This document shows positions 45,001 through 48,000 of a stretch of 64,000 nucleotides of DNA, in pieces. This stretch comes from Candidatus Aenigmatarchaeota archaeon (GTDB taxonomy: Archaea > Aenigmatarchaeota > Aenigmatarchaeia > CG10238-14 > SCSR01). Where the stretch lies: contig JAWADS010000001.1 of NCBI GenBank assembly GCA_038998625.1, forward strand, positions 30,110-94,109. Direction: 5' to 3'. Positions within the stretch are counted from its first letter, which is position 1. The number at the start of each line of letters is the position of its first letter. The position numbers are program-made.

Positions 45001-48000
45001 CAATATATTCAGTTTTTTTCTCCTTTTCTTCCTGCTTCTCTTTAGGAATTATTATGGGAAAGAGTATTGGGGGTGGCAATTGAAGCTCTTCAGATATACT
45101 TAATCCTAAGCCTAAACATTTTCTGAATAGAAAGTTTTTAATTTCTATGTCAATTTTTTCTGGTAACTTCTTTTCCTTTTTCCAATCTTTTAATATTTTC
45201 TTTGAATCTTCACTAGCAAATAAAAGCTCTCCAGACATTTTTATTTTTGCTACATCTGGCTTATATTCTGTTTCAAACTCAAAAGTTATTCCTAAAGCGG
45301 TCTGTTTGCCTAAAATATTTACAGTCCTTTCTTCAACGGTTTTAATAAGTGGAGTAGAAGAAATATCTATTCTACCGACAGGATTCCCTTTTCTTTCTGC
45401 TACAATACTTTTTAAAGAGTAACCCAATATAGGCATGATATTACCTTTGAGATACCATTTTATTGAATTTATATCTTTATATAATTACCTTAACTTTATT
45501 AAGATTATTTATGGGAGCTATAAGTTTAAATGGCTTAAAAATAGAATGGCTGAAGCACGATTGTTTTAAAATTAAGGATAAAAGAGTAATTTATTTCGAT
45601 CCTTTTCAACTTTCCAATGAACTTGAGCCAGCAGACTTAATTCTCATAACCCATGAACATTTTGATCATTGCAGCATTGAGGATATTCAAAAAATCATCA
45701 AAAAAACCACAATAATTGTTGCGGCCGAAATATGTAAAAAAAGTGATTTGCCTAGTATCGAAGGTAAAGTTAAAAAAATTGTTTATATGAAACCCAATTC
45801 TACTTTGCCAATAGATGAAATAACAATCGAAGCAATACCAGCTTACAATGTCAATAAATTTAAAGCTCCAGGGGTGCCATTTCATCCTAAAGGTGAAAAT
45901 AGAGTAGGGTTTGTTTTGAATTACGAAGGAAAGAGAATTTATCACGCTGGCGATACAGACTACATTCCTGAAATATCTTCTTTAAAAAATATTGACGTTG
46001 CATTATTACCTGTTTCAGGAACTTATGTTATGACTGCCGAAGAAGCAGCAGAAGCTGTTAAAAACTTTAGACCAAAATTAACTATACCAATGCATATTGA
46101 AGGTGGAGTAGTTGGAACTTATAGGGACGCAAGAAGGTTTAAAGATTTAGCCAGTAATTTTACTAAAGTTGAGATTTTATAATAAATAAACAAAAAACGA
46201 AATTTATTTTATGGTAGCAAATGGAATGGAAGAACAATTATTAGTAGAGCTTTCTAAGAGGTTGGTGATGAAAAAAGATGAAATTATAAATTTTCTTCAG
46301 GATAAAGTTCCTAATGCTAAGCAAGTATATACACAATTGCTTCAAGATTTAATATCTAAAGGTTTTGTCAGGCATGTGGAACCTGTTGGAGAAAGTGTTG
46401 TAGCAATAACTCAGAAAGGAATGAAAGAAGTTAACGCAAAAATTTTTAAATAATTTTTATTAATTTGATTATATAGCCCCGTCGTCTAGCGGCCAAGGAC
46501 GCGAGGCTTTGGATATTTTATCTAAAGCTCTGATTTGATTTCGATGAAGAGAAGAAACCTCGAAACCGCAGTTCGAATCTGCGCGGGGCTATTTTTTTAT
46601 TTTTTGATAAAAATAATTATATGGCGAATTTGTTTTCTGTATTGGTGGTAATAATAACAACACTATCTCCTATTGTTGAATTAAACGGCTCGATACCTTT
46701 AGGAATTGCCTTGGGGTTAGATCCGCTTTTTACTTTTTTAATTGTGGTAGTAACAAACTCTTTGCTTTTTTTTGTTATATATTTCGCTCTTTTCTTTTTC
46801 TATGAAAATTTTATCAGTAAAATAAATTTTTTTAAAAAATATATCGAAAAATCAAGGAGAAAAGTTAAACCTTATGTTAAAAAATATGGATATTTAGGCT
46901 TAACAGCTTTCATAGCTTTACCTACTCCATTTACAGGGGTTTATACAGGTAGCGTTATTGCATGGATTTTGGGCATGGATTGGAAAAAATCTTTTTTAGC
47001 TATAGTCATTGCTGTTGTGATAAACGGTCTTATCGTTTTAGGAGCAGTTCTCGGTATTTTTGAATTTTTAAAATTTTTACTTTAAAGTTTAATTATATTT
47101 TATGATTCCAAAAAGAATTTTCAAAAAGGTTTTAAAGGATAAAAGGAAAAATCTTCTTGAGCATGAGGCGTATCAAGTTTTAAACTTTTACAAAATAGCC
47201 ACACCAAAATGGTTTTTAGCTAAATCTAAGCAAGAAGCTGTAAATTTTGCAGAAAAAATAGGCTATCCAGTGGTTTTAAAAATTGTAAGTAAGGACATAA
47301 TTCATAAATCAGATGTGGGCGGAGTTTTCATTGATTTATTAAATAAAGAGGCTGTAGCAAAAGCTTATGATCAGATTATGAAAAATGTTAAAGAAAATGC
47401 ACCTAAAGCGAAAATAGAAGGGATTATAGTTTATGAGATGGTTCAAAAGGGAAAGGAAGTAATAGTTGGTGGATTAAAAGATGCCCAATTTGGTCAAATA
47501 ATCATGTTTGGTTCAGGTGGTGTATTAGTAGAATTATTAGAGGATGTTTCCTTTAGAGTTTTGCCAATAACAAAAAAAGATGCTGAAGAAATGTTTTATG
47601 AAACAAAAGTTTCTCGGGTATTAAAAGGATATAGGGGCAAGCTCTTAGATGTGAAGGCTGTAATAAATTTAATATTAAAAACTGCAAAGTTGTTGGAGGA
47701 TAATCCTGAAATTAAAGAGTTAGATATAAATCCAGTTATGGTTTTAGAAAAGGGAGCTTATCCTGTGGATGCAAGAATTATTTTAGAATAAAAATTAATG
47801 AATTGAGATAAGGATGACAGATTGGAAAATACATTTCATATTCGGTAACTTTTTGTCCATAATCTTTATTTTTCTATTTTTCAGCTTTGGCTACAAATTA
47901 TCCTATGCAGAACTTTTTTTCATTGTTGCAATAATTCAGTTCACTAGCGTTTTTCCAGATATAGATTTGAAAAAAAGCAAGATTAGAAATTTTACTTCTG

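Follow-up and report, generated by a model that had tools for sequence, protein, structure and literature searches.

Putative single-K-loop guides for wobble nucleotide 34 embedded in tRNA precursors of an Aenigmatarchaeota archaeon

Several tRNA precursors of this archaeon carry an element antisense to their own anticodon loop, placed directly 5' of a box D'/C' K-loop and in a fixed register on nucleotide 34. Judged from sequence and comparative data, these modules are probably pre-tRNA-embedded box C'/D' guides, each with a single K-loop, for 2'-O-methylation of nucleotide 34 before splicing. Their sequence anatomy, conservation, register and covariation, and the genes for the three proteins of the system, are direct observations. 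The window referred to below is the whole stretch of DNA that was analysed (64,000 nt). Its features are collected in Table 1, and coordinates preceded by a contig name refer to other contigs of the same genome.

The module in tRNA-Gln(UUG) and in other tRNAs of the genome

A first-pass annotation had proposed that four long introns, those of tRNA-Gln(UUG), Leu(CAA), Arg(UCU) and Met(CAU), and only these, hold a half box C/D guide aimed at nucleotide 34. For the Gln intron, direct reading of the sequence bears this out: all nine guide positions pair, two of them as G-U, with the fifth on U34, and the helix continues into the first three nucleotides of the intron (i1-i3). The guide element is part of the hairpin in the predicted minimum free energy (MFE) fold, that is, a fold in cis. 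A terminal C/D pair, already reported as missing, was seen nowhere in this intron, which on reading has neither a C box 5' of the guide nor a D box 3' of C'. The box and guide assignments also hold for the other three introns, both by reading and in a shuffle test. Of the 8 long 37/38 introns of this genome that were tested, 5 hold a composite of guide and K-loop in the nucleotide 34 register; among 20,000 shuffles per intron it arose 171 times for Gln, 46 for Leu-CAA, 11 for Leu-UAA, 96 for Arg and 11 for Met.

The restriction to four introns does not stand. tRNA-Leu(UAA) (C4:18722-18874) also carries the module and is a clean fifth case, missed by the earlier pattern because its D' box, CAGA, was excluded from it; the gene previously taken for Leu-UAA (C13:11683-11780) parses as Ser-CGA. 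The Trp gene had been set aside as an unclean fit. Its guide is present and aimed at C34, and what is unclean is the K-loop, which is degenerate. Intron modules are therefore found in Gln-UUG, Leu-CAA, Leu-UAA, Arg-UCU and Met-CAU, and in degenerate form in Trp. Both introns of the Trp gene were also considered as the halves of one split C/D K-turn (CAUGAUUA in intron 1, AUGA in intron 2, with a CUUC/GAAG stem), but the gene of a congeneric genome gives this no support.

Table 1. Module-bearing tRNA genes of the window and their elements (positions in the window)
Feature	Position	Strand	Remark
tRNA-Gln(UUG) gene	46475..46590	+	One intron at 37/38; cloverleaf read from sequence
Gln anticodon loop, nucleotides 32-37, CUUUGG	46507..46512	+	U34 at 46509, predicted methylation target
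Gln intron, 44 nt	46513..46556	+	Direct sequence reading
Gln antisense (guide) element, UAUCUAAAGCU	46519..46529	+	Pairs with nucleotides 31-37 and intron i1-i3
Gln D' box, CUGA	46530..46533	+	Fifth nucleotide 5' of D' lies opposite U34
Gln K-loop spacer, 9 nt	46534..46542	+	Between D' and C'
Gln C' box core, GAUGA	46543..46547	+	Direct sequence reading
Gln 3' intron strand, GAAG+AA	46551..46556	+	Pairs with C32-U35; 3' bulge of splice-site (BHB) conformer
tRNA-Leu(CAA) gene	34235..34378	-	Two introns; intron 2 at 34281-34320
Leu-CAA intron 2 guide, ACUUGAGCU	34302-34310	-	Target C34 at 34324
Leu-CAA intron 2 D' box, CUGA	34298-34301	-	
Leu-CAA intron 2 C' box, GAUGA	34290-34294	-	
tRNA-Trp(CCA) gene	17127..17246	-	Two introns; target C34 at 17193
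Trp guide, UGGAGCU	17179-17185	-	
Trp AUGA	17175-17178	-	Follows the guide; K-loop degenerate

The Gln gene is either overlooked or wrongly labelled by ARAGORN and the Rfam tRNA model, and a script anchored on the T-arm and acceptor was therefore used for tRNA genes. A search of the Gln locus against Rfam with E values up to 10 gave nine matches, all below the gathering scores; two were snoRNA-like and were taken as chance. A homologue of this tRNA gene turned up in 53 of 61 genomes.

The genome encodes all three proteins of the system, with L7Ae at C4:14359-14637, Nop5 in an ORF on C4 and fibrillarin at C4:27716-28357. Fibrillarin is near-universal in the phylum (356 of 371 genomes), so that a phylogenetic profile against the module is uninformative. 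A strict regular expression for four-box C/D sRNAs had no match over the whole genome and none in 10 shuffles. A loose search for C and D boxes outside ORFs yielded five candidates, none having by eye a recognisable inner D'/C' pair. The host is a tiny hot-spring archaeon, from a lineage with genomes of about 0.5 Mb; its assembly lacks the 23S rRNA and covers just positions 4-828 of the 16S rRNA.

Register, covariation and distribution among relatives

The comparative set consisted of loci from 60 relatives, with anticodons UUG, CAA, UAA, CAU, CCA, UCU and UUU. Genes were sampled as the 30 best loci matched by BLAST with each intron-containing query, a procedure that favours look-alikes. In this set, the composite lies in the nucleotide 34 register in 82 of 88 intron-bearing genes, spread over all seven anticodons, compared to 0 to 9 for the other registers tested (nucleotides 29-38) and about 2.2 per 88 when the introns are shuffled. 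The proposal that the guide is aimed at nucleotide 34 agrees with every comparative test that was run: this register, the covariation, a K-turn variant, the pairing with intron nucleotides, the protein genes and the targets known in other archaea.

Pairing was then scored in 84 positives. The pair between nucleotide 34 and guide position -5 is Watson-Crick in all of them and covaries (U-A in 48, C-G in 36). The 31:-2 pair is Watson-Crick in 82 (G-C in 68, C-G in 12, A-U in 2), and 35:-6 and 36:-7 are paired in every case, with three to four pair types each. The guide thus covaries with nucleotides 31, 34, 35 and 36 over seven tRNA families. Position 30:-1 is never Watson-Crick paired (0 of 84); the position adjoining a D box is usually not Watson-Crick paired. 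For the Gln arms alone (n = 28), 92.7% of cells are paired, a value matched by none of 500 shuffles, while slid controls gave 24 to 53%; four pairs show changes on both sides.

The extent of the helix differs between families. In Gln genes it mostly runs over 8 to 11 contiguous bp and in Arg genes over 6 to 10, while in Met, Leu-CAA, Trp and Lys it is short, mostly 6 to 8 bp, apart from two Trp genes with 9 or 11; the guide always stands directly 5' of D'. The pair i1:-9, which takes in the first intron nucleotide, is formed in 24 of 25 Gln genes, all 7 Arg genes and 6 of 7 genes for Leu-UAA, and it occurs as several pair types with compensatory changes; pairing into the intron is absent from the pattern in Met, Leu-CAA, Trp and Lys. 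As the Gln, Arg and Leu-UAA helices reach intron nucleotides that change in a compensatory manner, the unspliced precursor would be the target. The loop closing the target-guide hairpin is often of only 3 to 5 nt, and the introns of module-bearing genes are 26 to 52 nt long.

Among the positives, the D' box (NNGA) is UUGA in 46, CUGA in 24 and another sequence in 14, so that UUGA is commoner than CUGA. GAUGA is found as C' in 64 of 84; the U of UGAUGA is missing from most C' boxes. The spacer between the boxes measures 2 to 13 nt, mostly 5 or 6. The K-turn signature U.U at d2:c5 is present in 65 of 84. Pairing at d1:c6 was counted in 82 (C-G 31, U.G 41, U-A 7, A-U 3), a figure inflated by a script that chose the C' candidate whose c6 pairs with d1. 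In some families (such as f36), a GCC-UUCG-GGC stem-loop stands in place of the K-loop and would make a true K-turn. A bare D'/C' string is frequent by chance (278 in this genome) and not significant alone; the K-loop call rests on conservation, and significance comes from the nucleotide 34 register together with conservation.

By family, 15 of 16 Leu-CAA genes from relatives have the motif, and the Trp module is seen in all 8 parsed genes, including that of the present genome (d1:c6 pairs in 7); these counts omit multi-intron genes mis-assigned by the anticodon parser, among them Leu-CAA and Arg-UCU of this genome. Of the phylum's 371 genomes, only 101 gave a match to a strict Gln pattern, and roughly twelve of the 109 listed matches look like chance. 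As read from the tables, the trait is spread over many families of the phylum, and a control pattern had three matches in the 371 genomes. A motif scan of other contigs gave at least 119 stretches, the tRNA matches with visible titles being Aenigmatarchaeota or archaeal MAGs. One listed tRNA match is labelled Nanoarchaeota, with a motif string identical to that of a genome of the phylum set (G078). Among the matches listed, those in Methanomassiliicoccus and Desulfurococcaceae were dismissed as chance, since they lie outside any tRNA gene.

In tRNA-Ser(UGA), in this genome as well, guide and K-loop are located in the 5' leader, as in all five genes seen. This guide pairs with nucleotides 31-37 and also with i1-i2, where the changes are compensatory (GA/uc versus AG/cu). 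The module had been thought to explain why these introns are retained. That idea is weakened by the leader module, by three Arg-UCU genes of relatives that are intronless, and by a Gln-UUG gene (L023) whose intron has no K-loop; one further genome (G044) has a 13-nt intron without the module.

Splice-site fold, proposed mechanism and alternatives

Any intron with a BHB splice site must pair with the anticodon loop, an objection that had been raised together with its answer, namely that the BHB helix is formed by another, 3' part of the intron. The answer holds. The BHB strand is separate from the guide; its G pairs with C32 in 83 of 84 genes and its A with U33 in 72, and it shows no covariation at nucleotide 34, where all 36 genes with C34 have an A opposite. 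Guide pairing is thus a separate constraint. The BHB itself is of a relaxed form, with the intron at 37/38, an outer helix of about 3 bp and a 3' bulge made of two intron nucleotides and nucleotide 38. The BHB-forced fold is predicted to be 7.5 kcal/mol less stable than the guide fold for Gln; over the 84 genes, prediction favours the guide fold in 77 (median 4.1 kcal/mol). Where introns are short, the C' box and the BHB strand overlap.

On the strength of these sequence features, a course of events is proposed that comprises protein binding, methyl transfer and action in cis, in a set order. The antisense element would fold back on its own anticodon loop (nucleotides 31-37, often with the first intron nucleotides), and the adjacent K-loop would bind L7Ae, which would recruit Nop5 and fibrillarin. 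Fibrillarin would then 2'-O-methylate the nucleotide opposite the fifth guide position 5' of D', that is, wobble nucleotide 34. The guide hairpin and the BHB fold would compete for anticodon-loop nucleotides, and often for the C' box. Since these nucleotides are shared, we propose that the RNP leaves before the splicing endonuclease acts, so that methylation precedes splicing; in Ser-UGA it would also precede removal of the 5' leader. Several observations speak against this reading: the Gln intron has no terminal C/D pair, half guides perform poorly in vitro (PMC1635284), the helices of Met, Leu-CAA, Trp and Lys are short, D' and C' often depart from CUGA and UGAUGA, some genes of relatives lack the intron or the K-loop, and the sampling favours look-alikes.

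The guide could be real and yet not act within its own molecule. Guiding might take place in trans, by an intron or leader already cut out or by another precursor, or two precursors might share a Nop5 dimer with one K-loop each, giving the usual two K-motifs. We consider this rather unlikely, although it has a precedent: the in vitro evidence on the pre-tRNA-Trp intron of Haloferax volcanii, as reported in PMC2584109 and PMC7994747, leans to action in trans. Half guides had moreover been noted as poor substrates, and PMC1635284 does describe, for a hemi-complex that has a single C/D motif and a single guide, very low activity under standard in vitro conditions and non-specific methylation, site specificity requiring both C/D motifs; a two-precursor particle would cure this defect. 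The common closing loops of 3 to 5 nt and a cis hairpin that is the predicted MFE fold favour intramolecular pairing, and pairing with intron nucleotides excludes the mature tRNA as a target, though not another precursor. Permissive genome-wide scans for guide plus K-loop were overwhelmed by chance matches and are uninformative on stand-alone or trans guides.

A role limited to L7Ae binding seems to us improbable. The hairpin and K-loop would then cover the BHB strand as well as the anticodon loop, serving as a chaperone or putting a brake on splicing or processing, and no methyl group would be transferred. The stability of the guide fold over the BHB-forced fold and the overlap of C' with the BHB strand would suit a brake, and mammalian intronic K-loop RNAs are described as suppressing, together with 15.5K, the excision of their host intron (bioRxiv 10.64898/2026.08.03.742641). 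A brake, however, needs neither an exact placement of D' with position -5 facing nucleotide 34 nor covarying pairing up to nucleotide 31 of the anticodon stem. It also leaves unexplained the Ser-UGA module, which lies in the leader, remote from the BHB, and the restriction to tRNAs whose wobble nucleotide is a known C/D target elsewhere (PMC7994747, PMC6009581, PMC7668247). Still less credible, indeed hardly tenable, is a mere by-product of chance and common descent; on this view, pairing with the anticodon loop is obligatory for BHB introns, and an AT-rich genome has many GA-rich strings. It is true that the permissive composite is judged no commoner genome-wide than in shuffles (2975 compared to 2690-2861), that K-loop-like strings are equally dense within and outside ORFs, and that the Gln, Leu and Met introns look related (common GCU-YUGA, AAGAA ends). 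Chance is nevertheless rejected by the register test and the shuffles. The BHB helix is made by another strand, which does not covary at nucleotide 34, and the guide covaries at four positions in seven families. The module also occurs in a 5' leader, and the trait is present in many families of the phylum, with three matches of the control pattern in 371 genomes.

Returning to embedded guides for nucleotide 34, a wider picture may be sketched, more tentatively. In Aenigmarchaeota, wobble guides could have been reduced to single-K-loop modules within the substrate precursors (seven introns and one leader). Such modules would amount to half C/D RNPs that occur in nature and function there; they may be the chief guide RNAs remaining to fibrillarin in genomes of this size, and would act as a built-in checkpoint forcing methylation before splicing or 5' processing. 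Specificity might come from the tethered tRNA body or from two precursors per Nop5 dimer. If the modules work as proposed, a single K-motif with a 6 to 11 nt guide suffices in vivo when tethered to its target, which bears on the old question of why C/D RNPs are bipartite. There would also be a specific selective reason for the upkeep of long anticodon-loop introns in archaeal genomes that are among the smallest, and the modules would serve as a small, self-sufficient substrate in work on C/D RNP assembly and on the order in which modification, splicing and end processing occur. Annotation is affected as well: such genes are overlooked or wrongly labelled by standard tRNA finders, and the module predicts which tRNAs bear Nm34 in an uncultured phylum.

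Relation to known guide systems

Compared to an archaeal box C/D guide RNA, the modules have the D'/C' boxes, in a genome with the L7Ae, Nop5 and fibrillarin genes, and lack the terminal K-turn that box C (RUGAUGA) and box D (CUGA) form at the RNA ends; the antisense element of that class measures about 8-12 nt. Their predicted targets are those of known trans-acting sRNAs, which obey the same N+5 rule: Pyrococcus sRNAs aim at the wobble nucleotide of Leu-CAA (sR47 of P. abyssi, on C34), Leu-UAA, Met (sR49) and Trp (PMC7994747), and a reconstituted sR47 RNP methylates C34 of tRNA-Leu(CAA) (PMC5558902). U34 of Gln is the target of Pyrobaculum sR27 (PMC6009581) and of a Sulfolobus guide, Sulfolobus tRNA-Gln(UUG) carrying Um34 (PMC7668247). 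As described in these sources, such sRNAs are separate four-box genes, whereas here the guide lies within the substrate transcript. The K-loop resembles the C'/D' K-loop of Pyrococcus (Nolivos et al. 2005, cited in PMC5558902), in which D', a short loop and C' form an L7Ae site without the canonical stem; the Pyrococcus RNA, as presented there, always has a terminal C/D K-turn in addition. With one K-motif and one guide, the modules come close to the engineered hemi box C/D complex of Hardin and Batey (2006, PMC1635284), which is artificial, weak and non-specific, whereas in the natural modules both the target and a folded tRNA body are attached.

A close parallel is the pre-tRNA-Trp intron guide of Euryarchaeota, in Haloferax volcanii and Pyrococcus (sR50). 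There too, the target tRNA bears the guide in its own 37/38 intron with N+5 on C34, the helix lies partly on intron nucleotides, and methylation must come before splicing (PMC7994747, PMC2584109). That intron is described as a complete sRNA, some 100 nt in length, which has C, D', C' and D boxes and carries two guides (for C34 and U39); the modules found here have one D'/C' K-loop and one guide, and occur in seven to eight tRNA families. A literature search, with most subscription journals outside its reach, returned no description of a K-loop or half C/D guide in Gln, Leu, Arg, Lys or Ser precursors. The earlier statement that only the Trp intron was known is too narrow, since a C/D-like RNA has been published from the 66-nt intron within elongator tRNA-Met of Nanoarchaeum equitans (PMC3491384). 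This also is a non-Trp intron with box C and box D in a DPANN archaeon with a reduced genome. Compared by its description, its RNA is stable and C/D-like, with one box C, one box D and a GC hairpin, no target being named in the passages compared, and belongs to a single tRNA rather than to a family-wide set as here. With the Trp intron guide and the Nanoarchaeum Met intron as precedents, the modules appear to be a pared-down version of an RNA-guided system already known.

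Putative guide modules in the tRNA genes of the genome

The tRNA-Gln(UUG) gene was identified by direct reading of the sequence. Its intron holds an antisense (guide) element, a D' box, a spacer and a C' box forming a K-loop, an arrangement referred to here as the module. Counting back from CUGA, nucleotide -2 pairs with G31, -5 with U34 and -8 with G37, while -9 to -11 pair with intron nucleotides 1-3. This agrees with the first-pass annotation, which had placed -5 on U34 and had seen no terminal C/D pair; none is present in the intron. The gene is poorly handled by standard tools. 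On the window, ARAGORN called only two tRNAs and Rfam, at gathering level, six tRNAs and the archaeal SRP RNA, the Gln gene being missed by both. With introns allowed, ARAGORN named the Gln gene 'tRNA-Stop' (tta), the Leu-CAA gene 'Lys (ttt)' and the Arg-UCU gene 'Phe (gaa)'. An Rfam tRNA search of the whole genome (469,094 bases in 19 contigs, about 31% G+C, completeness rated 92%) missed the Gln and Leu-UAA genes and, for Arg-UCU, gave just a weak partial match inside the gene. Six DNA runs (X1-X6) labelled hot springs metagenome contain all of window 46300-46800 and are its possible source; none of the runs listed for this DNA is an RNA run.

Coordinates of the features discussed (window positions, or positions on contigs C2 to C13 of the same genome)
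Feature	Position	Strand	Remark
tRNA-Gln(UUG) gene	46475-46590	+	direct sequence reading
Anticodon loop CUUUGG	46507-46512	+	end of exon 1; U34 = 46509
Gln intron, 44 nt	46513-46556	+	followed by A38 and anticodon-stem 3' strand
Gln antisense element UAUCUAAAGCU	46519-46529	+	preceded by 6 intron nt
Gln D' box CUGA	46530-46533	+	followed by 9-nt spacer
Gln C' box GAUGA	46543-46547	+	followed by AGAGAAGAA
tRNA-Leu(CAA) gene	34235-34378	-	
tRNA-Trp gene	17127-17246	-	
Trp intron 1	17202-17217		
Archaeal SRP RNA	28405-28678	-	Rfam RF01857, 136.9 bits
tRNA-Arg(UCU) gene	C2:45544-45674		
tRNA-Met(CAU) gene	C13:1784-1899		
tRNA-Leu(UAA) gene	C4:18722-18874		
tRNA-Ser(UGA) gene	C3:32739-32843	-	C3:32739-32900 with leader region
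Fibrillarin gene	C4:27716-28357		
16S rRNA	C13:13-913		positions 4-828 only, at contig end

The modules reported earlier in the Leu-CAA, Arg-UCU and Met-CAU introns all hold as described. A T-arm/acceptor scan of the genome revealed a fifth clean case, tRNA-Leu(UAA), where the guide CUUAAGCU, followed by CAGA, a 5-nt spacer and GAUGA, targets U34. The Leu-UAA intron had been considered a poor fit, a view that does not stand: this gene fits, with a CAGA that lay outside the pattern then used, and the gene at C13:11683 previously taken for Leu-UAA is Ser-CGA in our parse. The Trp-CCA intron had been set aside in the same way; its K-loop is indeed degenerate (D' just AUGA, C' poor), but the guide UGGAGCU still faces C34. 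Trp intron 1 contains CAUGAUUA and CUUC, possible pairing partners of AUGA and GAAG in intron 2; a K-turn split over two introns, not shared by the gene of the relative G001, is a speculation.

A listing of K-loop strings outside ORFs pointed to the 5' leader of tRNA-Ser(UGA), which reads ...AGACUCAAGGU CUGA uuuuuuaa GAUGA ugaagauaa up to tRNA position +1. The leader element forms 11 contiguous pairs with nucleotides 31-37 and intron nucleotides 1-4 of its own gene, -5 facing U34. A leader module, ending 4-22 nt before +1, was found in five out of five Ser-UGA genes recovered (G031, G002, G046, G043 and the source genome G000; loci L249-L251, L253, L256 and L267), and the changes are compensatory: guide GA goes with intron uc, and guide AG with intron cu. 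This shows the antisense element and K-loop to be a module in its own right, aimed at nucleotide 34 wherever it is placed in the precursor.

Bare K-loop strings number 278 in the genome, at the same density in and out of ORFs, and a permissive composite (target anywhere within 45 nt) occurs 2975 times, compared to 2690-2861 in shuffled genomes, that is, without excess. As both are common by chance, the signal lies in the register on nucleotide 34 and its conservation rather than in the motif alone. The register-34 composite was present in five of eight long 37/38 introns tested, and upon shuffling each intron 20000 times it arose in 11 to 171 shuffles.

Register and covariation among relatives

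Sixty relatives of the same order were searched by BLAST with the Gln, Met, Leu-CAA, Trp and Arg-UCU genes, and every tRNA-like gene in the best 30 loci per query was taken (136 distinct genes). Parsed anticodon arms whose 37/38 intron measured 18 nt or more were scored positive if guide, D' and C' lay in register 34. In this sample, which favours look-alikes because of the introns in the queries and the cut at the best 30 loci, the module was found in 27/28 UUG, 15/16 CAA, 7/8 UAA, 13/14 CAU, 8/8 CCA, 12/12 UCU and 2/2 UUU genes; three more UCU genes are intronless. Inspection by eye revealed further cases, in multi-intron genes that had been mis-parsed and in genes whose hairpin loop is very short. 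Other long-intron genes of the same loci (Thr-UGU, Ile-UAU, Leu-UAG and the multi-intron Lys-CUU gene L092) were without it. The sole other script matches, in another Lys-CUU gene (L121) and one Thr-CGU gene, have 5/6 guide pairs each and atypical boxes, and look like chance. When -5 was set against each of nucleotides 29-38, nucleotide 34 was matched in 82 of 88 genes and any other in 0-9, with about 2.2 for intron shuffles. The initial observation is confirmed, and extended to seven intron-borne and one leader-borne tRNA families.

Among the 84 positives, the 34:-5 pair is always Watson-Crick (U-A 48, C-G 36), and nucleotides 35 and 36 pair without exception, by three to four pair types. The 31:-2 pair is Watson-Crick in 82 (G-C 68, C-G 12, A-U 2) and 30:-1 in none, which places one guide pair inside the anticodon stem and three pairs on the D' side of the target. 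Pairing extends to 37:-8 in 56 positives, and from the first intron nucleotide to -9 in 24/25 Gln (A-U, U-A, U.G, G.U), 7/7 Arg and 6/7 Leu-UAA genes. The guide helix of these three families includes intron nucleotides, and the target would therefore have to be the unspliced precursor. With all 28 Gln arms aligned by MAFFT, 92.7% of cells were paired, a value equalled by none of 500 shuffles, compared to 24-53% when partners were slid by 1-3 columns; both sides changed at four pairs.

K-loop boxes and distribution in the phylum

The D' boxes of the positives are UUGA (46), CUGA (24), CAGA (5), AUGA (4) and other (5). Of the 84, 64 have GAUGA as C' core, most have a spacer of 5-6 nt, and in 65 the second D' and fifth C' positions form U.U. 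First D' and sixth C' positions combine as C-G (31), U.G (41), U-A (7), A-U (3) and A.G (2), a paired total aided by selection since the script preferred C' candidates whose sixth position pairs. The information lies in the association of GAUA and GAUU boxes with UUGA and AUGA, as in the Met intron of the source genome (UUGA ... AUGAUAA).

A strict Gln pattern matched in 101 of 371 phylum genomes, and a reversed control pattern, as we read the table, in three. Of the 109 matches listed, about a dozen have no hairpin and are apparently due to chance. Families f1 (48/69), f5 (11/19), f8 and f36 are rich in the trait, which is rare in f4 (1/23), f21 and f39; being patchy, it is not indispensable. 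In f4 (loci L271-L276), four of the Gln-CUG genes seen lack introns and one has a D-loop intron alone, and the 13-nt intron in the anticodon loop of the G044 Gln-UUG gene has neither module nor K-loop. In the Gln-UUG introns of f36 (G269-G278), the spacer is GCC-UUCG-GGC, a tetraloop-capped stem replacing the loop. By its sequence this element, with its capped stem, is a true K-turn in place of the K-loop of the others, as expected if the Gln element is a K-motif. Separately, the intron (about 65 nt) of a tRNA-Arg(CCU)-like gene of f4 (L115, genome G053) opens with a box C-like GAUGAUGA and holds UUGA, AAUGAUA and CGGA, making it a possible full four-box C/D sRNA.

Possible roles and known wobble guides

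The guide could be a by-product of the bulge-helix-bulge (BHB) fold at the splice sites. As the first-pass annotation had proposed, the strand of the BHB helix comes from another, 3' part of the intron, the conserved ..AAGAA at its end, which pairs C32-G in 83/84 genes and U33-A in 72/84. This strand sets an A opposite nucleotide 34 whether U or C, and is thus mismatched in 36/36 C34 genes, which makes the by-product explanation very unlikely. The guide fold is the predicted minimum free energy structure of the Gln arm, and is predicted to be stabler than the BHB-forced fold in 77/84 genes (median gap 4.1 kcal/mol). In short introns and in Arg-UCU the C' box is itself the BHB strand, which makes the two folds mutually exclusive there.

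The best-supported reading, which we consider probable, is that the modules act before splicing, in cis or in trans, as half C/D guides for 2'-O-methylation of the wobble nucleotide. Short guides in four families, off-consensus boxes, patchiness and the lack of a terminal C/D pair count against it. The caveat, raised earlier, that half-mer guides are poor in vitro is borne out by the available text of Hardin and Batey (PMC1635284), according to which a complex of one motif and one guide showed hardly any activity under standard conditions and its methylation was non-specific, specificity requiring both motifs. A less likely reading is a non-catalytic K-loop module acting as a brake on splicing: mammalian intronic K-loop RNAs suppress excision of their host intron, according to the available text of a preprint (bioRxiv 10.64898/2026.08.03.742641). 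Such a brake would, however, leave the register on nucleotide 34 unexplained.

For the half-guide reading, the genome encodes fibrillarin, L7Ae and Nop5 (347 aa, N-terminal and Nop domains). Fibrillarin, present in 356/371 phylum genomes, is near-universal and its distribution is no test of the idea. A strict four-box regex found no ordinary C/D sRNA gene in the genome, whose assembly is without 23S rRNA. The half-guide modules are of real interest to the fields of C/D RNPs, tRNA introns and reduced archaeal genomes.

In the portions available of the papers cited here, four Pyrococcus C/D sRNAs serve the wobble nucleotide of Leu-CAA, Leu-UAA, Met and Trp, with the intron itself as the Trp guide (PMC7994747), and a reconstituted P. 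abyssi sR47 RNP methylates C34 of tRNA-Leu(CAA) (PMC5558902). U34 of Gln is the target of Pyrobaculum sR27 (PMC6009581), and in Sulfolobus tRNA-Gln(UUG), Um34 was found and a guide for U34 predicted (PMC7668247). A 2008 paper describes the Trp guide as 'always intronic' and the Met guide as 'always exonic' (PMC2584109). The targets of the modules are therefore the expected ones; Arg-UCU, Lys-UUU and Ser-UGA, not found as targets in the same portions of these five papers, are additions here.
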